A stretch of 39,927 nt of DNA, taken from the IMG/VR virus record IMGVR_UViG_2711768036_000007; one strand, given 5' to 3'. Below the pieces are notes generated by a model, which did not search any database, was not told the origin of the DNA, and worked only from the letters and a program-made list of their open reading frames with translations. Source of the stretch: a virus (Duplodnaviria; Heunggongvirae; Uroviricota; Caudoviricetes). Below, piece after piece: positions 3,195 to 37,359 of the stretch; the first letter of the stretch is position 1; each line of letters opens with the position of its first letter. The translations under genes and the position numbers were made by a program.

Positions 3195-3829
3195 TTTGCC
3201 TCCTGCGGCGGTTCTGGTAGTGGCATCCAGTGTGTGACATTGCTAATCAGACCATATTCATTAGTTTGAGGATGGTTGCCGTTATCGTCTCCATATTTAA
3301 GACTCTCCATAAAACCATAATGCTTATTCCCATTAACGCGCACAAAGCCGTAATAAGCTGGTATAACGCCGATCTCACACGTAATCAGCAAAGGAAAACT
3401 AGTTCTCCAATTTAGCTCGCCGATTACAGGCATTCTCTCACTACAGCTTATCCAACCATCCGGAGTTACCGGATTGTTGCCAGATAGCTCGTTCAACCTG
3501 TAAGTTTGGCTTACAGGTTCGGCTTCCAGTTCTGCTATGCGCTTCTCTGCGGCTTCCAGCTCAACACGCAGCTTCCCTACCGTTAGCGCAATTTCCTCGT
3601 TCTCCTGATCGCGGCGTTTTATGTATTGCTGGTCATCCAGTAGTGCCAGCACGGTTTCTGGTCCGGCCAGAAATTTGAAGGCGTTGAGCGCATCAATATC
3701 CACACCGTAATCTTTAAGTTCCTGTTCACTTAACAAATCATCATCAACTGGCAACATTAACAGGCGTTCCATTGCTTGAGTTGCACGTTCTGCCGCCATT
3801 CGCAGTGCCTGATAGTCAATCTTGCTCAC
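3191..3829 (-). CDS. Ead/Ea22-like protein with C-terminal DUF551-like domain
   Basis: 212 aa; coiled-coil N-part; C-terminal motif THWMPLPEPP typical of DUF551 prophage proteins (recollection). Confidence 0.5.
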   Translation of the reverse strand: MSKIDYQALRMAAERATQAMERLLMLPVDDDLLSEQELKDYGVDIDALNAFKFLAGPETVLALLDDQQYIKRRDQENEEIALTVGKLRVELEAAEKRIAELEAEPVSQTYRLNELSGNNPVTPDGWISCSERMPVIGELNWRTSFPLLITCEIGVIPAYYGFVRVNGNKHYGFMESLKYGDDNGNHPQTNEYGLISNVTHWMPLPEPPQEAK

Positions 3830-4133
3830 TGGTTGCCTCCTTTGCTGGGCTTTCTATCTTCTGAGTGGTTGTATCAAACTCAAACAACTTAACCACGTCA
3901 TCAAACAGGACATAATCGCCATCAGAATCTTCAGTCATGTCAGCGCCACAATCCTGACCGCACGAGTCACAACCACCCATATCAAGTTCGTATCGCTTCA
4001 GGTTTGCGATATTTGATAAATTCAGCGCCAGTACAGCCAGGTCATAAACCTCGTCAGCGGTATACCCTGCACCATGCCCATACATTTCAATGCGGGATAT
4101 GATTTCTTCTACACGTTGTTTTGTGATTGTCAT
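3816..4133 (-). CDS. Hypothetical ea-region protein, 105 aa, acidic Cys-rich
   Basis: ORF in track; start ATG overlaps stop of upstream small ORF. Confidence 0.45.
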
Positions 4134-4294
4134 TTTTTCCCACTCCGTAACATCGCATTCAGATATTTGTTTTGATTCACTGATGGAAAAGAATTTCTCT
4201 TAAGCAATTCCTCTCTCGATGGCATTGGCTTTACGCGTTGGCGAATAATCATTTCTGCCGGAAGAATGCCGGGATTGTATGCAAGTCCTCTCAT
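4130..4294 (-). CDS. Hypothetical small protein, 54 aa ([23 protein letters not shown]...)
   Basis: Hand-translated; AGAGGA RBS upstream; ATGA overlap with downstream gene. Confidence 0.4.
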
Positions 4295-4310
4295 GGTAAA
4301 TTCCTCTTTG

Positions 4311-4625
4311 TTAATTTATTCGTATGCCTGCTCTTTCTTCATCGAGTTTTTTTAGCTTGTATCGCATAGCTCTTACTGAATAAATTGAGCGGCAGGTTGC
4401 AATTGCTATTTCTTCTGCGGAGAACTTACCGAAAAGTGATACTTCGGCTCTTGTCCAGCGTCTTCCACGAAGTCGGCTAACAATGTCAGCGCCAATCCTT
4501 GTTGCTTTCGCCATTACTGCTTTTTCAGTCCTTTCCAGTTTTTCAGCGATAACTTCAACTGGCATTGTCGCCGCTACTTCGCGCAAGAAATCGACTTCCC
4601 ATTTCTCCCATGGAGTCTTTTTCAT
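4311..4625 (-). CDS. Hypothetical protein, 104 aa, internally repeated, possibly DNA-binding
   Basis: ORF in track; two similar W..E..L...IA segments. Confidence 0.45.
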
Positions 4626-4636
4626 AGTCGATACCG

Positions 4637-5125
4637 TTATTTGATAAGAAGTGAAGGTTTCCCAACTTTGAGTTGAGCGCCGGGGATATTTATTCCTGCT
4701 TTTAGTTGGTGTTTGATTGCCAGTTTGTCGGCTTTAATTGTCGTTTCAAACTCAACGTATTCAGGAGGAAGGGCGCTTGAGTCGATGATTTCTACAGTTT
4801 CTGACGGTTTGCGGATTGTTACCTGGTGAATACCTGCTCGAATCTTTTTCTTGCCAACCATTTCAAGCGATGACGCTATATACGCAATAATGCTGTCAAT
4901 CTTATTTTGAATTACTGCGGCTCGCTCATTTAGTGACTTTGCCTCTTCCTTGAGGCGTTCAGCATAACCAGATTCATTTTTAATAATGGCAAGAAGTTGC
5001 TCTATTTTATCGGTAAATTCTCCTTCCATGCCTTCTATTGTGTCAGCAATCATCTCTGGTTCTAAATCTGAATCCATCAATTTTGCGTATTCATTGGCAA
5101 TTTCATACAGTTTGCTCACTGGCAA
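4637..5125 (-). CDS. Coiled-coil protein next to recombinase (possibly Gp157-like accessory)
   Basis: 162 aa, directly downstream of RecT-like gene; family assignment is recollection only. Confidence 0.45.
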   Translation of the reverse strand: MPVSKLYEIANEYAKLMDSDLEPEMIADTIEGMEGEFTDKIEQLLAIIKNESGYAERLKEEAKSLNERAAVIQNKIDSIIAYIASSLEMVGKKKIRAGIHQVTIRKPSETVEIIDSSALPPEYVEFETTIKADKLAIKHQLKAGINIPGAQLKVGKPSLLIK

Positions 5126-6005
5126 CCTCCAGCTTCGCTTTGCATTCTATGTAAATGGCTTGTACGTTCTGCTGCAATTTCATTCCAGATGTCAGGCGAT
5201 ATGCTTCTGCAAAATATCGCTTCAAATCATCCATGTTTTCTGCCTGAGCCATTTCATCGCAAAGAAGTTGTGCTTTATCCATTATTTCCTGCTGGCGTTT
5301 CCGTTCATCTTCGCGGATATCTTCCTCTGATTTGTGCGGCATAACTGGTTCCTGATGCATACCTTCATCTTCGTTAAGAAGGTGAATGGCATTATCCAGT
5401 CGCTGGGCTTTAGGCCAGTATTTGCTGGCGCGTTTAACTATTGTTTTACGCGCCATCTCTTCCCAGAATGTTTTCCACGGTCCATTCTTTGCCTTGCTCG
5501 TTGCTTCCACAGCTTTAATTTCTGCCAGACTCATTTCTTCAGTCAGGTAGTCACCATCTGCTGTTTTAACCGTGCAATAACCTCCAACAATAGAGCCTCG
5601 CTCACCAAATGCGTTGTATTTGTGGGTTGGTGCTGAATCAAGGCCATTTGATTCATAGGTGTCGTTTGAGTACACCAGTTTGCATTGCCCCCACTTAATT
5701 GATCCTGTCGATTGCGCAAGATGAAGTAATCCCATGTAACTGATATCAAGGCACACCATGCCGTCGCGAGGAACCAGATAAGCCAGTTTGCTGGCCGGGT
5801 TTAAGGTGATGCCGATCGCCGCAACATTGATGATGGCGTTCTGTGCGCTGGTTGGATTTGCCAGTGCTGTTTTAGCCAGGTAATCGTTTTTCTGGAAATA
5901 CTGAATTGCAAACTGGCTTTCCTTAGCCCATGTCACCGTCTGTTCAGTCAATGCTCCGCAGAATAATTGCTCTTGCTGTTTAACGAATTCAACGATATTG
6001 CTCAT
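5103..6005 (-). CDS. RecT-family single-strand annealing recombinase
   Basis: Motif KNGPWKTFWEEMARKTIVKRASKYWP matches RecT conserved NGPW..HWEEMAKKTA region. Confidence 0.8.
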   Translation of the reverse strand: MSNIVEFVKQQEQLFCGALTEQTVTWAKESQFAIQYFQKNDYLAKTALANPTSAQNAIINVAAIGITLNPASKLAYLVPRDGMVCLDISYMGLLHLAQSTGSIKWGQCKLVYSNDTYESNGLDSAPTHKYNAFGERGSIVGGYCTVKTADGDYLTEEMSLAEIKAVEATSKAKNGPWKTFWEEMARKTIVKRASKYWPKAQRLDNAIHLLNEDEGMHQEPVMPHKSEEDIREDERKRQQEIMDKAQLLCDEMAQAENMDDLKRYFAEAYRLTSGMKLQQNVQAIYIECKAKLEVASEQTV

Positions 6006-6313
6006 GCAGCTTCTCCATAAATATGTCTGCGTTTGAATATTGCGAAGGCATATTCAGCCTTAACTCTTTCGGTTATTGCATCCCAGAACCATTCAGCTGC
6101 TTTTTCCTGATAGTTACAGTCATCATCTTCCAGCCAGTCGATAGCGTCCTTAGTGTGTTCATCTGGTTTATATGAGCGAAGCATTTCGCTTATTGGGTCG
6201 CAACGTTTGCAGAGACGATCAACTTCACTGTTGATTCGTTCGTAATCTTCATCGGTAAAACTTGCGATGATTTGCGATATTTCACGCTTATCATTCAGAG
6301 TCAGAATCATCAT
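6002..6313 (-). CDS. Hypothetical protein upstream of recT, 103 aa
   Basis: ORF in track; position of kil/gam-type accessory genes. Confidence 0.45.
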   Translation of the reverse strand: MMILTLNDKREISQIIASFTDEDYERINSEVDRLCKRCDPISEMLRSYKPDEHTKDAIDWLEDDDCNYQEKAAEWFWDAITERVKAEYAFAIFKRRHIYGEAA

Positions 6314-6394
6314 CTTTCTCCTGTTCTTTGTGCTGATTGAGCATTTCTTTCATCTGACGAATGAATTCTTCGTCTGACCAGTTATCTGTAAAAC

Positions 6395-6565
6395 TCATGG
6401 ACGGCCTTGTTGTTTCAAAATATCCCAAAGCTTTTCGAGCAAACTTTTCATTCTTGGTTGTTTAAAGTCTGCTCCGGTTAAAATATTTTTTCGTGAATGC
6501 TGTACCGATAAAATCGGGTTGAAAGGGCGAACCGATGCCGCCCCTGCAATAGCGAACTGTTGCAT
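6395..6565 (-). CDS. cIII: cIII-like protein (FtsH inhibitor), 56 aa
   Basis: From internal Met: MQQFAIAGAASV...SLLEKLWDILKQQGRP resembles lambda CIII (MQYAIAG...SLLERITRKLRDGWKRLIDILNQPGVP); AGGAG RBS upstream. Confidence 0.6.
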   Translation of the reverse strand: MQQFAIAGAASVRPFNPILSVQHSRKNILTGADFKQPRMKSLLEKLWDILKQQGRP

Positions 6566-6631
6566 AGGATGCTCCTTCTGTTTGATTGCATAACGAAAAC
6601 GCCTCTCGTGAAGCGTTATTGGTATGCATAT

Positions 6632-6655
6632 AAAAAGGCCCTCACATTGGAGGGC
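6632..6655 (-). terminator. Rho-independent terminator in the leftward operon (tL-like)
   Basis: Minus-strand hairpin GCCCTC-6nt-GAGGGC followed by U-run. Confidence 0.45.
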
Positions 6656-6791
6656 AAAGAAGATTTCCAATAATCAGAACAAGTCGGCTCCTGTTTAGTT
6701 ACGAGCGACATTGCTCCGTGTATTCACTCGTTGGAATGAATACACAGTGCAGTGTTTATTCTGTTGTTTATGCCAAAAATAAAGGCCACCG

Positions 6792-7043
6792 TCAGGCAGC
6801 CTTGTTGTAAATGTTACAGGTATCAAGTAAGTAATTAGATGGAGCGCCATAAATTATGAATTCATCGTTTGTCGGGTCCATCTCCATCTCTTGGCCTATT
6901 GCCATTCTTGCGTCAGTGTCATCAGCGGCGAAGCATAAAACAGCCCACGCACCCATTGTTTTAAAAAGAACTGCAATTGGCTGTGGTTTTACTGAATTTG
7001 CGTTAGCGCGAAAATCATAAATCGCACTTTCATGAAATTCCAT
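6792..7043 (-). CDS. Hypothetical protein between N and cIII, 83 aa
   Basis: ORF in track. Confidence 0.45.
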   Translation of the reverse strand: MEFHESAIYDFRANANSVKPQPIAVLFKTMGAWAVLCFAADDTDARMAIGQEMEMDPTNDEFIIYGAPSNYLLDTCNIYNKAA

Positions 7044-7357: not shown

Positions 7358-7689
7358 GTTGACCTCCGGGAAGGTACACATCCTTGTGTGTCGATGATTA
7401 TTTGTTTTTGCGTTCCCACATCCAGTCATCTACTTCAGACCAGATGGTGAAACCGAAGCCGATGGCGAATGTGGTAACTAAACCACCGAGAATTGGGTTG
7501 GTAATGATGTCTAACATTTTCTGTTCCTCAGATGATTAGCTTTGGTGGTGTGGTCGGTGGGAGACCCATTTCGACCCGCTTCGTCCGACTTCAATTCGGC
7601 AATAGTCCCGCAGGCCTCGCCGCTTTACGTGCGACATATTCCCGTCCATGAACCCTTCACCACACCCCAAAGCCAACTACTCTTTGGTT

Positions 7690-7729
7690 CCCGCATTTCG
7701 GCGGGACAATCCCATCAATGTTAAAGAGC
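7690..7729 (-). promoter_or_regulatory. nutL (boxA GCTCTTTAA plus boxB hairpin CCCGCCGAAATGCGGG)
   Basis: Same boxA/boxB pair, same 15-nt spacing, as the rightward copy at 9359..9401. Confidence 0.6.
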
Positions 7730-7777
7730 CTGCCAATCTGTTCCGTTTGGCTTCCAGCGTCCTGCTGATGGCTAAAG

Positions 7778-7863
7778 AATACTGTAGGTATTTTATTGTG
7801 TAAATACCCAAGGTATTTATTTTTGATGAAATAATGATAAACAAATGAATACAAAGGATATTT
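7778..7863. promoter_or_regulatory. OL operator cluster / PL region (AATAC-N5-GTATT sites)
   Basis: Palindromic 15-mers at 7778..7792 and 7803..7817, degenerate third at about 7849..7863; same motif in OR. Confidence 0.55.
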
Positions 7864-7948
7864 ATTTTTTCGCTGTCTGCTTGTTCAGTGATTTTTATGC
7901 GGGATATGTGAAGTGGATCCCGATAGCTATTGCTGCCGGGATTATGGG

Positions 7949-8317
7949 TTAGTCAGCGAAGGTTAAGACGAGAATTACCTTAATGATGTCTGCTACAACA
8001 GACACGGCCATAGATAAACCAAAGACGATCCAAGCCACAGTGATGTCTTCACTACCATCGTATAGAGTTCCGTAATCACTGGTGTAAGGCGTAAATGTCG
8101 CGCCTTGATACAATAGGTATAAGCTTGATTCATAGAGGATAAATGCAGATATCCCTTGTATTGCTATGATCACAAGAATCATGAAACGAGCTGATCTATG
8201 CGCCCAAGCCTGGCTTATTTTTTCTGATAGAGATTTCGCAATAAAAGCATGCGCTAAGCCGTAAATTGTCGAGATTGCCAACATCCCAAAAAAGCTTGCT
8301 ATAGCGGTTCCAACCAT
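7949..8317 (-). CDS. Small polytopic membrane protein co-transcribed downstream of cI (rex/sieB position)
   Basis: 122 aa from ATG with AAGGGG RBS (track ORF starts at TTG overlapping cI stop); about 4 hydrophobic helices; rare codons visible. Confidence 0.6.
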   Translation of the reverse strand: MVGTAIASFFGMLAISTIYGLAHAFIAKSLSEKISQAWAHRSARFMILVIIAIQGISAFILYESSLYLLYQGATFTPYTSDYGTLYDGSEDITVAWIVFGLSMAVSVVADIIKVILVLTFAD

Positions 8318-8334
8318 AATCGCCCCTTGCGTGA

Positions 8335-9051
8335 TCAAACCAGCCTTAGTTTTGTCTCAATTGCAACGCCTATAATCTTGCAGTTTCCATTGATTGGCAC
8401 GAGAGGCCATGCAGGATTAAGTCCCTTGAGGTATTTATTTCCGCCGTCGATTATCAGCTTCTTGAATGTTGCTTCGTTAGAGTCAGAAAGTTTTGCTATG
8501 ACCAAGCTGCCGTTGATCGCCTCCCTTCCGGTATCGAAAAGAACGAATGTTCCCTCTGGAATGCTTAACCCAACCGGTGCCGTCATTGAATCACCTTCCA
8601 CTTTAAGCCAGAACGCATTACCTTGAATATGCGCGTCAGACTCAAGCCAAACATCTATGTCTTTAATGGTGTATGGTTCGCATGCTTCACACCACGAGCC
8701 AGCCTGGATACTGCTTAACACCGGATACCTCTTTCCTGCTCTGTATTCCCCTGCATACCTTACGTTGGCATCGCTCTTAAGGCTTTCTGCCTGTTCTGCA
8801 ACCTTGGCAGCAATTGACTGGCTAAAATCAGCAATTGAGACTTGCAACAGTCGTGCAAAACCAGATGCAACCTCAACGTTTAGCGCGTTTCTGCCATTAA
8901 GATAATGCCCTACCGCTCCTTGGGTGATACCCAGTTCATCAGCGATTGAGTATTGGGTTATCCCCAATTCTTTCTTTTTTGACTCATACAAAGCCTTAAG
9001 CCGCTTAGCGTCTTCGAGCTGTTCTGTCGTCAGTGATTTTTTATTTTCCAT
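8335..9051 (-). CDS. cI: cI-type prophage repressor (N-terminal HTH, C-terminal S24 LexA-like domain)
   Basis: 238 aa; HTH segment ITQYSIADELGITQGAVGHYLNG; C-terminal GDSM and K motifs of S24 peptidases; divergent from cro across operators. Confidence 0.85.
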   Translation of the reverse strand: MENKKSLTTEQLEDAKRLKALYESKKKELGITQYSIADELGITQGAVGHYLNGRNALNVEVASGFARLLQVSIADFSQSIAAKVAEQAESLKSDANVRYAGEYRAGKRYPVLSSIQAGSWCEACEPYTIKDIDVWLESDAHIQGNAFWLKVEGDSMTAPVGLSIPEGTFVLFDTGREAINGSLVIAKLSDSNEATFKKLIIDGGNKYLKGLNPAWPLVPINGNCKIIGVAIETKLRLV

Positions 9052-9086
9052 AGCTTAATTCTAATAGCTAAGGTACTTAAACTAAA

Positions 9087-9126
9087 AATACCCTGAGTAT
9101 TGATTGCTTTGAATACCTGTAGTATT
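9087..9126. promoter_or_regulatory. OR operator sites / PR-PRM region
   Basis: AATACCCTGAGTATT (9087..9101) and AATACCTGTAGTATT (9112..9126) between divergent cI and cro. Confidence 0.6.
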
Positions 9127-9157
9127 CTTTGTTCATGGTTAATAACGGAGAGTGCAT

Positions 9158-9358: not shown

Positions 9359-9401
9359 CGCTCTTTAACAGTCATGGTCCTCATTCCCGCCGAAATGCGG
9401 G
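9359..9401 (+). promoter_or_regulatory. nutR (boxA CGCTCTTTAACA plus boxB CCCGCCGAAATGCGGG)
   Basis: Between cro and cII; boxB identical to nutL copy. Confidence 0.65.
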
Positions 9402-9460
9402 AATACAACGCGCATAAGTTGATGCGCATAACTTCTTATTTGTTAAGGAAATACTTACAT

Positions 9461-9754
9461 ATGGTTCGTGCAAACAAACGCAACGAGGCTCTAAGAATCG
9501 AGAGTGCGTTGCTTAACAAAATCGCAATGCTTGGAACTGAGAAGACAGCGGAAGCTGTGGGAGTTGATAAGTCGCAGATCAGCAGGTGGAAGAGGGACTG
9601 GATTCCAAAGTTCTCAATGCTGCTTGCTGTTCTTGAATGGGGCGTCGTTGACGACGATATGGCTCGATTGGCACGACAAGTTGCTTCGATTCTCACCAAT
9701 AAAAAACGCCCGGCGGCAACCGAGCGTTCTGAACAAATCCAGATGAAATTCTGA
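9461..9754 (+). CDS. cII: CII transcriptional activator
   Basis: [51 protein letters not shown]... matches lambda CII as I recall it; track ORF carries a spurious N-terminal extension. Confidence 0.9.
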
Positions 9755-31533: not shown

Positions 31534-34161
31534 ATGGCTAATTACCGTGATTTGTTAGAGCAGGCTGGCGCACGTTACGGTGTGCCAGAAGGGTTGATGA
31601 CTGCACTGGGTGCCAAGGAGTCTTCTTACAACCCTGCCGCAGTAAGCTCCGCCGGGGCTGTAGGATTGACTCAGGTCATGCCTGGGACATGGCGTGATAT
31701 GGGTTATACCGATGAGCAAATGCAAAACCCCGAATATCAGGCTGACGCTGGCGCGCGCTATCTGGCAAAGATGTACCAGCAGTTTGGTAACTGGCGTGAC
31801 GCTCTTCAGGCTTATCACGACGGTCCCGGCAACGTTATGAAGGCAAAGCGTGGTGAATATACGCCAGGACCTGAAGGCCGCGGTTACGTTGATGATCGCT
31901 TTGCTCAATGGGCGGGTGACCCGGTGACAGACTCAACAGTCGAACAGCGCGCCACCTCTGCAAAGGTACATCCTCAGCAAGACCCTAACAACCCGTTTGC
32001 ACAACTGGAAGTACAGTCATCCGAACAAGTATCAGCATCAGGTGTGCAGTCAGACCCAAATAATCCATTTGCTCAGATTGAGCAGCAGGCAGCCAGTCAG
32101 CAGCCACCTCAACCCGTAAGTTCTGTCGCACCGAAACCTGTTCAGCAACAAACAGTTAATCAGGCCAATAATGAACCAGCACGTGAAGAACCATCATTGA
32201 TGCAACAAGCTGGCGATTGGCTCACAGGTGGTCAAAGTGCAGGGCAAATTGCAGAGCAGGCTGGTCGTGGTCTGGTAAACATACCATTCGACGTATTACA
32301 GGGCGGCGCAAGCCTGATTAATGCAATCAGTCAGGGGCTTGGTGGCCCCAAGGTTTTGGATGATGTTTATCGCCCTGTCGATCGACCGACAGACCCTTAC
32401 GCACAAGCCGGTGAAACAATTGGTGGGTATCTCCTGCCAATTGGCACAGCGGCAAAAGCTGCTGGAGCGACAGCAAAGCTCGCAGGAGACATCGGTTCCG
32501 CAGGAAACATGATTGCCGGTTCTCTTGCTGATGCTGCAAATCAGGAGGGTGATTTTGCACAAAATGCTGCCATTAACGGTGGTATCAATATTGGTGCTCA
32601 AGGCGTTATTTCAGGTGTCGGGCGCGTTATTGCGCCAAGGGTTTCACAGGCTCTTGGTGGTGCAGCACTGAATTCTGCTAATGATGTTTCCAGGATGGCA
32701 AAGTCAGGTGCTGGGCGTCAGTCAATTGCCAGTCAGGCCGCTAATGTGTCCGAAGATGTAGCAAAAGCGGCTGAGTCTGCTGGAATTGATATAAACGCAT
32801 TAACACCAGGAATGCGATCTGGAAGTCGTGGAATTGCACAAGCCGAAGGCGCATTGGCATCAACACCAGGGATTGTTCAGGATGCCCATCAGGCAGCATT
32901 TAACGAAATATCATCAAAGTTAAGTCGAAACCTTGATGAATTTGGGGCCGCATCTGGAACGGCATCAGAAAAAAGTGCGGCTATAAAACAAAGGATTCTT
33001 CAAAATCTTGATCAGATGAAGGATGCTGAGCGCGCGGCATGGGATGACGTGCGGTCAACAATGCCAAATCAAAAAGCAAGAATGCTAAATGGTAATGCCG
33101 TTATTCAGGCAGAGCGATCTGCTGGCATACCGCTTACTCCTGAAATGAAACAGTTTGTTCAGGCAAACAATCAAGGTGGAGTAACATTTGATGGCATGAA
33201 AGCATGGAGAGCGAAATTTGCTGATGCGGAGCAAAAATATAAGCGTAGCGGAGAGGTAAATGCGGCAAGGAGAGCAGGGGAAATACGTCGGGCAATTACT
33301 GATGATATGCGCACAATGGCGGAAAACGGCGGATTTTTTGATGACTGGCAAAAAGCTAATGATCTGTCTAAAGCGAGGCTATCCGCACAAGAGAGTGCAG
33401 AGTCTGTTTTTGGGCGTGATTTGGCAACAGATGCACTGATTACGAATGGAGTAAAATCTCTTCAATCATCGTCAGCTAAAGGTCTTAATGGTCCTGCTGG
33501 ATTCCATTCTATGATCCGCGCGCTGCCAGAATCAGAGCGCGTTCCTGCTATATCATCAATGTTGCAGGATGCTATCTCGCATGGTGTACGTGGTGGCAAA
33601 TCTGATGCAGCAGGAATTAACCATATCGCAGGGATACTTACCCCACAAAATGTAAAAGCCATTAGCAGATATTCCTCAGAACTTGGAAGAATTGCTGATG
33701 CATATGGCACTCTTGCAAGAGCAGCAGTGAAACCTCAGCAGTATATTGAAAGAACAGGGAGAACTGCCAATGTACTACGCGATCTGGATGCTGGTTTATC
33801 CAACGTCACATCAACAGTGTTAAATGCAATTGCCAACTCAACATCAGGTGCCATTGTTGGTGGCGCTGGAGGGGGTATTGCAGGCGCTGCCGCGGGTGCT
33901 TTAGTTGGCGCCGGGTTAAAAGGCGCTGTATCTAAAATTGCCACCACACGTAGTGGTCGATATGCGATAGAGAAAGCTGTTCAGGAAGCCACCAAAGCAG
34001 TAAGAGCAGGCGGAAGCAAAGAAGCATTAGCGGCGGCGGAACGCAGATTTATAGCAAATAAAGCCGCCGTAAAAGCAATACGCGATGCTATTGGTAGCGA
34101 TGAATTCAATCGCTTGTCGAGAGCTGGTATTGTCGCCTCGTTAAGCGGTATGAATGAATAG
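31534..34161 (+). CDS. Ejection protein (gp16 position) with N-terminal lytic transglycosylase (SLT) domain
   Basis: 875 aa; N-terminal GAKESSYNP...[10 protein letters not shown]...YHDGPG resembles SLT domain. Confidence 0.65.
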
Positions 34162-34163
34162 CT

Positions 34164-34649
34164 TTATCTAATGTTGCTGCTACTGTTGCATGTGACGGTG
34201 TTTCCAAATCCTGAATTGCAGTTTGTATATGTGTCAACGCGCGTTGGGTAAGGTTGAGTTATAACAGGCTGGCGCGCTTTTTGCTCGATCGCTTGCATTG
34301 TGTTTACAGCCTGATAATTCAACAAAGCCTGCTGGAATGCTTGGCTTTGTGCTATTTGTTGGGCTTGTTCTTGGCTTTGTAATTGAACATAAAGATTCTG
34401 AAGCTCAAGTCTTGCCTGTGCGTCACTTATCTTGCCTTCATCGACACCTTGCCCGAGCATCTTTGCAGCAAGGACATACAGCTTAGGTGTTGGTGCTGAT
34501 GCCATGCGTGAGTCGTTCTTCACACTGGCATCAAGGCAATTAGCCATATCGCTAAGCTTTTGATAGCGTTGTTCGCAACTTGCTTGATAGTCACTTACTT
34601 TTGCGCATCCAACCAGCAGAAGCGGGATAATTAACAGTGATTTTTTCAT
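34164..34649 (-). CDS. Lipoprotein, Gln-rich, at the sieA position downstream of mnt
   Basis: From internal Met with AAGGAG RBS: signal MKKSLLIIPLLLVGC (lipobox LVGC); 161 aa; converges on end of ejection gene. Confidence 0.65.
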   Translation of the reverse strand: MKKSLLIIPLLLVGCAKVSDYQASCEQRYQKLSDMANCLDASVKNDSRMASAPTPKLYVLAAKMLGQGVDEGKISDAQARLELQNLYVQLQSQEQAQQIAQSQAFQQALLNYQAVNTMQAIEQKARQPVITQPYPTRVDTYTNCNSGFGNTVTCNSSSNIR

Positions 34650-34719: not shown

Positions 34720-34986
34720 CTATGTTTCCTTTTTATTATTGATATACATGGTCTTAAGCGTTTCAAAAACCATTTTCTTAACCATATCAGATTGTTGTTC
34801 TGCTATACGCTCTGCATCGTCAATGTAAACGGATGCAGAGCTTTGTTTAGCCAATGATTCTTCAATCGCTGCAATTATCTCTGAGTTCAGCGACCTGTTA
34901 TTCATCTTTGCACGCTGTTTAATTTTCGCGTGGAGTTCATGCGGAAGTCTCAAGTGAAACTGCGCCTCGTCGTATTTGCTGTACAT
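34720..34986 (-). CDS. mnt: Mnt-like repressor (ribbon-helix-helix, Arc/MetJ family)
   Basis: From internal Met: FHLRLPHELHAKIKQRAKMNNRSLNSEII...DDAERIAEQQSDMVKKMVFETLK resembles P22 Mnt (NDAERLADEQSELVKKMVFDTLK). Confidence 0.7.
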   Translation of the reverse strand: MYSKYDEAQFHLRLPHELHAKIKQRAKMNNRSLNSEIIAAIEESLAKQSSASVYIDDAERIAEQQSDMVKKMVFETLKTMYINNKKET

Positions 34987-35121
34987 CCGTGATGCCTCAC
35001 CAGTTGGGTGGAATGGCATCGTAAAACCTACTGTACAAATCAACAATCGTACCATTTCGGTATGTAACAAATGCCAACCGTAGCCATGCTGCGGCGATTC
35101 CTTGTATCTGGAGCAAATTAA

Positions 35122-37359
35122 ATGACAGACATTACAGCCAATGTGATCGTATCAATGCCTTCGCAACTCTTCACTATGGCGCGTTCTTTTAAAGCCGTAG
35201 CCAATGGCAAAATTTATATCGGTAAAATTGACACTGACCCGGTAAATCCTGAAAACCAGATTCAGGTTTATGTAGAGAATGAAGACGGTTCTCACGTTCC
35301 TGTTTCTCAACCAATCATCATTAACGCTGCTGGTTACCCTGTATATAACGGACAGATTGCCAAATTCGTTACCGTGCAAGGCCATTCTATGGCTGTTTAT
35401 GATGCGTATGGTGCACAGCAGTTCTATTTTTCGAATGTGCTGAAGTATGACCCTGACCAACTCAGGCAAGATCTTGCATCTCAAGGAGGTGTTAATCTGG
35501 TAAACGGAGCTATCTCACAGGAAGATCTTGTTTTGCAGTCGATCACAAAAATTCCAAGTTATGATAATTCTAACGTAGTCCAGGCGTGGCGCGATAGTGT
35601 TGCGACCTACGGGTATGTTTACTTCTCTAATCATTCAAAAAATCAGATGGTGTACACCGTACCGTCTACAGCTGCTAACGCTTCTTTCCTTGCGAACAGT
35701 AAAGTAATCATTGATAAAAATGTCACCCTGAGATTCGACAGTGATCTGTACTCACTGTTTAAATCGTTGCAGTACGAGGGGGAGGGTACGTTTGAATTTA
35801 CGCACCTGAACTTTAAAGCAACCGGTGGAGAAGTGGATTATCTGGCTAAGCAGGCCATCCTCAACCGAAACCCTATTCGCATGAAGCGAGTGGAATGGTC
35901 AGATTGTAAAGTTTATTCCATAAATGGTGACACGTTCTTCTATGAAGGTGAAGTCACCATATCCTCAGATAGCGCAGCTATCTTCCCCTTAACTACTGAC
36001 CGTACAACAGGCCTGTTCGCACCAATAGATATTGGAGAGCATATTTCTGCACATATTCGTATGGAATCTCAGGCCGCCTCAGAAGTTGGGATTGTTCTGC
36101 GATGCTCTGGTGGTTGGATGATGTTCTATGGGGCACCAGGTGCTACACAGTGGTCTTATAGACAGAAACCAATTGGTGGTCCAGTAGCAGAAGGAACTCC
36201 ATTCCCGCTGCCAGGAGGTTTACTGTCGTACGCCCCGGGCAAAGCAACCGTTGGCGTATCACTGCAAGGTAAAAACTGGGCGCAGATAACGATGAATGGC
36301 GTTGGGATACGCTTGCCCTTTGATACTGCTGATGTAGGGGATGTATACGAAGTTGGGTTTGTTGCACTGACCCCGGCATCTGGAGGTTCTGCGCGTGTAA
36401 CTGGATTATGCAGCTACACCTCTGATAATGGTGTGCACGGTAAGCCTCCACTTAATATCCTTATCCACGGTGATAGTACAGCTGAGGATTTCATTTCCGC
36501 GTTCAGCTCGTACATTCCGCAATTAATGGATGGAGCGAACGGCCACCGTTCACATAGCATTGTAAACAAGGCAGTTGCCGGACAGACAATGAGGCAACAG
36601 TTAGATCTCCTGAAGGCTCAGGGGCCGGGTGATGCTTACATCGTTATTATGGTTGCCGGAACTAACGAAGGGCAGGCAAACCAAAACGGCGATTATATGG
36701 CGGCACTGATAGATGAGTTTGTCTTATATTGCAATGGCCTTGGTCGTATCCCTGTTTGGGTTGAGCCGTGGATGTGGTATAGCCAGTCATTTATTGGCGG
36801 TGCTGGTCAACCATCAGCAAATTACGATGGTGTTGCGGAGTTACGCGAGGCTGGTAAACGCCAGATGATGAAATATGGCAATAACGTCATTTGTGTAACA
36901 ACAACTCACCAGCTCCCGGCCCCATATCCAGAGTATTTCAACACGCAATACGACCCACTTCTGCGTGATGACATTCACCAAAGCCAGTTAGGGTATCGTC
37001 TGTATGCGGAAATTATCTGCTCTGCCATTATCGACTGGTGGTCGCGTGTTGATTACACGCCAAGAGCAGCTGTTCAATGGTGGGCTGGAACAAACGTAAC
37101 AGTACAGGAACCGTCAAGTTTAACTGCCAATTCAATTAATATTAAACTGGCAGCCACTTCATTTGCGAATGGCAATACTGTTCTAACGCTTCCGAGGTGG
37201 TGCAGACCAAAAGTAACCAAAAATGTCCCTGTACCGTTCACTGCTGATGGCGTTTCATTTGGCATGGCAATGGCCACCATTAATGCTTCAACAGGACAAA
37301 TATCGATTGAAGGGTCCACCACTACATCTCCAACGTTCTACATAGATGCGACATGGTAG
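35122..37359 (+). CDS. Tailspike: P22-type N-terminal head-binding domain fused to a domain with SGNH-esterase signature
   Basis: N-terminus [43 protein letters not shown] resembles P22 gp9; downstream blocks IHGDS, VAGQT, GTNE, DDIHQS fit SGNH blocks I, II, III, V. Confidence 0.8.

Follow-up and report, generated by a model that had tools for sequence, protein, structure and literature searches.

The immunity region of the prophage genome IMGVR_UViG_2711768036_000007 (IMG/VR; Caudoviricetes) carries, directly behind the cI repressor gene, a small minus-strand gene that corresponds to hkaS of coliphage HK620. The whole stretch of 39,927 nucleotides (nt), referred to here as the window, makes up a complete prophage of the P22-like (Lederbergvirus) type, with genes for an integrase, portal, coat, ejection proteins and a tailspike, and its immunity region is 99.6% identical to HK620 DNA over positions 7700-9100, the interval for which identity was measured. 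In HK620, the gene has the same length and the same position, downstream of an HK620-type cI and upstream of the left operators and leftward promoter (OL/pL), and was deposited in 2001 with the product "unknown" (record AF335538, protein AAK28867). hkaS is also annotated in HK630, mEpX2, HK140, HF4s and several Shiga toxin (Stx)-converting phages; every member of the family bears the NCBI label "hypothetical protein", and the corresponding family PHROG 6534 ("unknown function") matches the window gene at E=2.1e-78. The window protein, HkaS, is identical to WP_053273003.1 in an exact-sequence look-up, shares 97% protein identity with the cluster representative P0001, and differs from HK620 HkaS at two residues, E63 among them.

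A first-pass annotation, made from the letters of the window, had called an open reading frame (ORF) at 7949..8338 of the minus strand directly downstream of cI, in agreement with the ORF list and with Pfam, and had left its start at or just after the cI stop, for a product of 122-129 amino acids (aa). The 122-aa form with an ATG start is retained here, and the 129-aa form with a TTG start is not. The cI stop codon TGA occupies 8335-8337, and the ATG lies at 8317, 17 nt past the cI stop. The start is read as ATG 8317, with a predicted product of 122 aa, because it is preceded by an AAGGGG Shine-Dalgarno sequence, because the PHROG profile begins there (residues 8-129 of the 129-aa form align with positions 1-122 of 122), and because diverged homologues preserve the context of the ATG and not that of the TTG. 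Thus, in loci L002 and L006, whose HkaS proteins are only 61% and 52% identical, the cI stop is followed by 17-20 nt with AAGGA and then by an ATG, and an in-frame TTG start is absent from both. The accompanying argument that rare codons mark hkaS as an acquired moron is weak, because codon usage does not set the gene apart from cI: ATA, CTA and AGA together make up 9 of the 122 hkaS codons, against 15 of 238 comparable rare codons in cI. The GC content is 41.7% for hkaS, 45.7% for cI and 47.9% for the window.

hkaS is a real gene: all 79 IMG/VR loci examined have it intact, as do 64 of the 64 loci with identical cI and downstream sequence, where it invariably lies 18-20 nt behind cI. The protein keeps a length of 121-122 aa without a single indel, and 43 residues are invariant at 52-61% identity with synonymous sites saturated. 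Among complete E. coli genomes, hkaS occurs in 146 of 5426 (~2.7%), and its companion HK620-type cI also in 146, at 147 places each; the hosts include O145:H28 and O111:H8 strains. The synteny, with cro running one way and cI, hkaS, OL/pL and N succeeding one another the other way, is invariant in E. coli, Salmonella and metagenomic loci. The cassette is found in three virion types, those of HK620 (Lederbergvirus), HK630 (Lambdavirus) and phi296 (Traversvirus/Sepvirinae), as well as in Stx-converting phages, and so follows the immunity type, not the virion type. Species-representative genomes of GTDB contain no hkaS homologue.

HkaS is predicted to be a three-transmembrane (TM) protein, nearly all of it embedded in the membrane, presumably the inner membrane. 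Kyte-Doolittle hydropathy gives three hydrophobic segments, and an AlphaFold2 (AF2) model built from a 7-sequence alignment (predicted local distance difference test, pLDDT, 92; predicted template modelling score, pTM, 0.79) has helices at residues 2-29, 31-38, 41-73 and 89-121 and a β-hairpin at ~78-86. Both bear out the membrane character that had been claimed for the protein, although the claimed count of about four helices resolves into three TM helices and one short amphipathic cytoplasmic helix. Loop 1 is basic (K28, K33, R41, R44) and loop 2 acidic (D81, D87, E90, D91), which by the positive-inside rule suggests an N-out/C-in topology. TM1 (2-29) would then cross from the periplasm to the cytoplasm, residues 31-38 would form a basic amphipathic helix on the cytoplasmic side, TM2 (41-73) would lead into an acidic, aromatic β-hairpin region in the periplasm (~74-88), and D110 and K113, both invariant, would lie in TM3 (89-121). 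Conservation is highest in three stretches: KISQAW.HR.ARF, which spans the cytoplasmic helix and the beginning of TM2; S.YLLYQGATF.PY, where TM2 ends on the periplasmic side; and D110..K113.ILVLTFAD, where TM3 ends on the cytoplasmic side. Four polar or charged residues within the helices, Q54, S106, D110 and K113, are invariant. Codon 63 of the window gene (8129-8131), within TM2, encodes Glu; Gly is found there in 29 of 31 close alleles, that of HK620 among them. E63 is a rare variant that possibly alters function.

As far as sequence comparison reaches, HkaS is an orphan beyond a small enterobacterial family. A word-indexed search of 5.8 billion proteins gave 12 clusters, and a profile search of 1.84 billion representative proteins gave two matches, both inside the HkaS family; a sequence search of the PDB gave none, and no PHROG family other than 6534 matched below E=0.1. 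The earlier statement that the protein has no homologue is therefore wrong within the family, to which HK620 hkaS and PHROG 6534 belong, and right outside it. A clear match to a housekeeping membrane protein family, which had been named among the findings that would overturn the original proposal, did not appear in the Pfam, NCBIfam, PDB or profile searches.

The position of hkaS places it between the right (OR) and left (OL) operators, inside the immunity region (Table 1). A search of the whole window with the operator pattern AATACNNNNNGTATT, one mismatch allowed, returned five sites in 40 kb (7778, 7803, 7848, 9087 and 9112), whereas ~0.9 would be expected by chance, and the five sites bracket cI and hkaS. 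OL1 and OL2 form the left boundary of the region, and a promoter scan finds pL-like hexamers at 7804-7776. At the other end, the divergent promoter for repressor maintenance (PRM) would have its TAGAAT -10 element ~7 nt before the cI ATG, which would make the cI mRNA near-leaderless. A cII-like protein is encoded at 9374-9754; the promoter for repressor establishment (pRE) is of the cII-activated kind. HK620 features were transferred to the window by subtracting 64 from their HK620 coordinates, an offset taken from the cI region.

Table 1. Features of the hkaS-cI immunity region, in window coordinates.
Feature	Position	Strand	Description and source
OL1, OL2	7777..7818	-	Overlap pL (7769-7804); HK620 annotation; exact AATACNNNNNGTATT matches at 7778 and 7803
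tIMM region ("termination of cI transcript")	7837..7867	-	HK620 record; contains operator-like site 7848-7862
Stem-loop AUCCCGG...CGGGAU	7917..7942	-	7 nt after hkaS stop, without U-tract; RNA fold
hkaS coding sequence	7949..8317	-	122 aa, ATG start; stop 7949-7951; ORF list, HK620 identity, PHROG, AF2
Shine-Dalgarno AAGGGG	8323..8328	-	5 nt upstream of hkaS ATG; read from junction sequence
Alternative TTG start (129-aa form)	8336..8338	-	Overlaps cI stop; probably not used
cI repressor	8335..9051	-	238 aa, LexA/S24-type; Pfam HTH_3 and Peptidase_S24; HK620 annotation; upstream gene of operon
OR3-OR2-OR1 with pR	9062..9127	+	HK620 annotation; operator matches 9087 and 9112
pRE (cII-activated)	9445..9484	-	HK620 annotation shifted by the 64-nt offset; presumed placement

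The natural reading of this arrangement is that hkaS would be co-transcribed with cI from PRM and pRE, because a consensus scan finds no promoter-like site between the two genes or inside either of them, and because, in the HK620 record, transcription of cI is annotated as ending beyond hkaS. The same scan found no internal promoter like PLIT of lambda. In RNA folding, the tIMM region of the record forms a weak AU-rich stem only. A different, non-homologous strong hairpin directly follows the hkaS stop in each of three diverged lineages (L002 and L006 included), and the stem-loop of the window may possibly be the 3' end or a stabiliser of the cI-hkaS mRNA. No canonical intrinsic terminator with a U-tract was found after hkaS, and a terminator scan did not call this stem-loop. 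A 35-aa plus-strand ORF at 7845-7952, convergent with hkaS, was rejected as a gene, having no promoter and lying in a 3' region that is unconserved in diverged lineages. The third OL-side operator-like site, 7848-7862 (AATACAAAGGATATT, one mismatch), is kept in three diverged lineages; the OL3 of the HK620 record is the equivalent of 7824-7840, a poor operator match. OL3 and tIMM may have to be re-annotated.

The interval from cI to N is a hotspot of mosaicism, occupied by rexAB in lambda and by bstA in prophage BTP1 (PMC8585504), and genes 44 and 45, of unknown function, lie behind the repressor of epsilon34 "like rexA and rexB" (PMC2629481). In P22, c2 directly abuts OL with no cargo in the slot. 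Relatives of the HK620-type cI at 76-78% identity lack hkaS and have other cargo in the same slot: a three-gene same-strand cassette at 3334-4862 of locus L085 (cI ~76% identical) includes a 205-aa MqsA-antitoxin-like protein (PF15731, E=8e-19), and an opposite-strand gene at 3248-3635 of L078/L084 (cI likewise ~76% identical) encodes a 128-aa protein with a signal peptide; PADLOC has no match for the slot cargo of either. The slot is a moron slot, and hkaS is an accessory (moron) gene in it, since related cI lineages hold different cargo there or none.

The evolution of hkaS differs from that of its neighbours. Across the 79 IMG/VR loci, the mean pairwise ratio of nonsynonymous to synonymous substitution (omega) is 0.25 for hkaS, with pairs ranging over 0.15-0.7, and 0.01 for cI. 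Segregating sites number 22 nonsynonymous and 17 synonymous in hkaS against 5 and 33 in cI (Fisher p=1e-4), whereas synonymous segregating sites per codon are 0.139 in both genes alike. In diverged pairs, protein identity is 86-89% for cI, 84-95% for Cro and 52-61% for HkaS, and the nonsynonymous rate (dN) is 0.34-0.44 for hkaS versus 0.07-0.08 for cI. hkaS is thus under purifying selection, yet far looser than cI, and at the protein level its evolution is 4-5 times faster than that of cI and Cro, which is typical of accessory or conflict genes. Positive selection on hkaS was tested for and not found, omega being well below 1, and F10L, I50V, I51M and T93S/V94M, its common polymorphisms, are conservative. 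HkaS divergence follows the host genus, from the E. coli alleles to Hafnia (82%) and Salmonella/Enterobacter (61%).

Of the characterised occupants of such positions, lambda RexB resembles HkaS in being a small polytopic inner-membrane protein encoded in the immunity region downstream of cI, on the PRM transcript (presumably so for hkaS), with the terminator of the immunity transcript behind it. On activation, RexB acts as an ion channel and depolarises the cell. The two proteins nevertheless have no sequence relationship, HkaS has three TM helices where RexB has four, and hkaS is without a RexA partner, since the intervals that separate it from cI on one side and from OL on the other contain no gene. 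An internal promoter is likewise not detectable. P22 SieA, a small three-TM inner-membrane protein, blocks DNA injection on its own (PMC10883804), and HkaS shares with it the prophage origin, the size range (120-165 aa) and, by prediction, the three TM helices. HkaS differs from SieA in lacking both sequence relationship and the cytoplasmic FxRYPxEAxxFNK motif (PMC10883804); moreover, sieA has a promoter to itself and lies next to the genes for the ejection proteins and the tailspike, whereas hkaS is in the immunity region. P22 SieB and HK620 HkaP have no homology to HkaS and no homologue in the window. BstA is similar in position, being encoded by a single gene in the same slot that is presumably expressed from the promoter of the repressor (PMC8585504); for hkaS, a self-immunity element like aba was not seen, though no search aimed at one was made.

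What the data support is a prophage-expressed accessory inner-membrane protein. As to its function, a tentative preference, held at somewhat less than even confidence, is given to superinfection exclusion at the level of the membrane, most likely by interference with genome entry. The earlier proposal of an exclusion or abortive-infection factor is a reasonable one, drawn from position and membrane location only; its positional argument has stood up well, with hkaS lying between the operators in a documented hotspot slot, close behind cI and with no intervening promoter-like site. Exclusion is favoured because the characterised occupants of the slot are anti-phage, because HkaS, like P22 SieA, would be a small polytopic membrane protein that acts alone, because it evolves quickly, and because the prophage is without other known exclusion genes: no significant homologue of RexA, RexB, SieA, SieB or HkaP is encoded in the window (tblastn). 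Under this proposal, hkaS, a moron embedded in an immunity cassette OL-hkaS-cI-OR, would share the transcripts of cI, which start at PRM in a lysogen and at pRE while lysogeny is being established. It would be translated from its own Shine-Dalgarno sequence and ATG, and HkaS would be a constitutive inner-membrane protein of the lysogen that disturbs some step which superinfecting phages carry out at the membrane. Most likely, this would be genome entry across the inner membrane, in a manner that resembles, and is unrelated to, that of P22 SieA, T4 Imm and HK97 gp15.

Several observations weigh against exclusion. HkaS has no match in Pfam, NCBIfam or PADLOC (0 families at E<=1 in PADLOC-DB 2.0); its hhalign probabilities are 0.8% with RexB, 0.3% with SieA and 0.1% with SieB; and searches of the PDB and of a viral fold library with the HkaS model return generic helical bundles only. 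In the literature, no paper testing hkaS was found, and its accession and PHROG identifiers match none; the P22 SieA paper (PMC10883804) and the DefensePredictor supplements contain no mention of it, and papers on mEpX2 and on co-transfer are uninformative about it. The perfect linkage of hkaS to cI is uninformative on function, because the gene is physically embedded between cI with its operators and OL. Since three virion types carry it, hkaS is not tuned to the delivery machinery of its own phage, unlike sieA. An omega of 0.25 indicates relaxed purifying selection and not demonstrated positive selection, and frameshifts or truncations affect a number of database alleles (P0006, P0007 and P0009; 77- and 111-aa forms). 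Finally, the strongest conservation faces the cytoplasm (KISQAW.HR.ARF; D..K.ILVLTFAD), which is not predicted for a purely periplasmic blocker of incoming phage proteins.

The strongly conserved cytoplasmic face could take a trigger, as would be needed for Rex-like abortive infection, in which an HkaS oligomer would act as a membrane channel that depolarises the cell on sensing superinfection, that is, as a RexB-like effector without a RexA-like sensor. hkaS occupies the slot and operon position of rexAB, HkaS like RexB is almost all TM helix with very short loops, and the invariant Q54, S106, D110 and K113 lie inside helices. This reading is considered unlikely, given the lack of RexB homology and of any PADLOC match, three TM helices rather than four, the absence of a rexA-like or other partner gene (OL/pL is next downstream), and a 16-residue cytoplasmic loop that would make a very small sensor. 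Somewhat better placed, though still on the doubtful side, is lysogenic conversion unrelated to defence, in which HkaS would bind or modulate a host inner-membrane protein, such as a transporter, a sensor kinase or a protease (e.g., FtsH/HflKC), and alter the physiology or fitness of the lysogen. Expression with cI would put HkaS in every lysogen, the cytoplasm-proximal and the membrane-embedded faces are both conserved, the divergence by host genus would fit adaptation to a host partner, and among the other slot cargo is a secreted protein that does not look like a defence factor. Yet HkaS shows no likeness to a known small membrane regulator or host protein in the search of 1.84 billion representatives, where it found only its own two relatives, and precedents in this exact slot are mostly anti-phage (PMC8585504).

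The presumed transcription of hkaS from both cI promoters, pRE included, and the fact that it is never separated from HK620-type cI would suit a phage-internal regulator that tunes the lysis-lysogeny decision or induction, as has been proposed for RexA and RexB in the lambda switch; a preprint reports a helping role of these two proteins in the lysogenic-to-lytic transition (10.1101/2021.04.19.439022). P22 and the cI relatives at 76-78% identity manage without hkaS, however, its protein evolves several times faster than cI and Cro, and it is not obvious how a protein with three TM helices would reach the operators, all of which makes this role quite improbable. A class I holin was considered and rejected: the N-out/C-in three-TM topology fits, but HkaS has no charged C-terminal tail, ending at TM3 (…LVLTFAD), and its gene is in the immunity operon, not in a lysis cassette. 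That hkaS is a functionless hitch-hiking ORF, kept only by being trapped between cI and OL, is hardly credible: selection is relaxed compared with cI, frameshifted or truncated alleles occur occasionally and no GTDB species-representative genome has a homologue, but the gene is intact in 79/79 and 64/64 loci, its omega is well below 1, its length, start context and 43 residues are invariant at saturated synonymous divergence (dS), and its AF2 fold is confident.

Membrane-level exclusion, if it is what HkaS does and if it protects lysogens, would add a sequence-orphan and minimal factor (122 aa, single gene) to the few dissectable prophage exclusion factors, and hkaS could affect which phages, therapeutic ones included, infect carrier strains. 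A bolder version, which is thought improbable, is that HkaS founds a new family of single-component, membrane-embedded anti-phage proteins that have no sensor partner and are made constitutively with the repressor, either sealing the inner membrane against the entry of genomes from several virion types or acting as a self-triggering depolarising channel ("RexB without RexA"). If that were true, HkaS would shape the phage susceptibility of ~3% of E. coli strains through Stx-converting and other lambdoid prophages. If it has no protective effect, hkaS is just another uncharacterised moron at a familiar hotspot. Its annotation goes back 25 years and it occupies a textbook location for morons, which a specialist would find unsurprising.

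Other loci of the prophage merit brief description. On the pL transcript, the first ORF is a 39-aa single-TM frame (MLDIITNPILGGLVTTFAIGFGFTIW…) at 7398-7517 of the minus strand, between nutL and N, which matches PHROG 7482 (E=8e-24). It is preceded by a ~170-nt leader in 7540-7730 of the same strand, between nutL (boxA GCTCTTTAAC, boxB-like hairpin) and this ORF; the 3' part of the leader (…ACCACACCACCAAAGCTAA…) recurs in the diverged locus L006, and Rfam has no match in the window, the leader included. Further along, ~480 nt without a convincing ORF (6314-6791) separate genes of PHROG 3486 (6002-6313) and PHROG 2471 (6792-7043). The comparable region of HK620 and HK630 holds hkaP (a "putative superinfection exclusion protein" in HK620), and in the prophage of E. 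coli T43 (L008) the equivalent place is taken by a gene annotated as super-infection exclusion protein B; nothing similar to hkaP or SieB is detectable at 6314-6791 of the window. At the position of sieA in P22, the window encodes on the minus strand (34164-34649) a 161-aa predicted lipoprotein with a MKKSLLIIPLLLVGC lipobox (PHROG 6067, unknown function), flanked by a gene-16-like ejection protein (31534-34161) on one side and by a Mnt/Arc-like repressor (34720-35070) and then the tailspike (35122-37359) on the other. This lipoprotein gene is a candidate for a second lysogen-expressed moron of the prophage.

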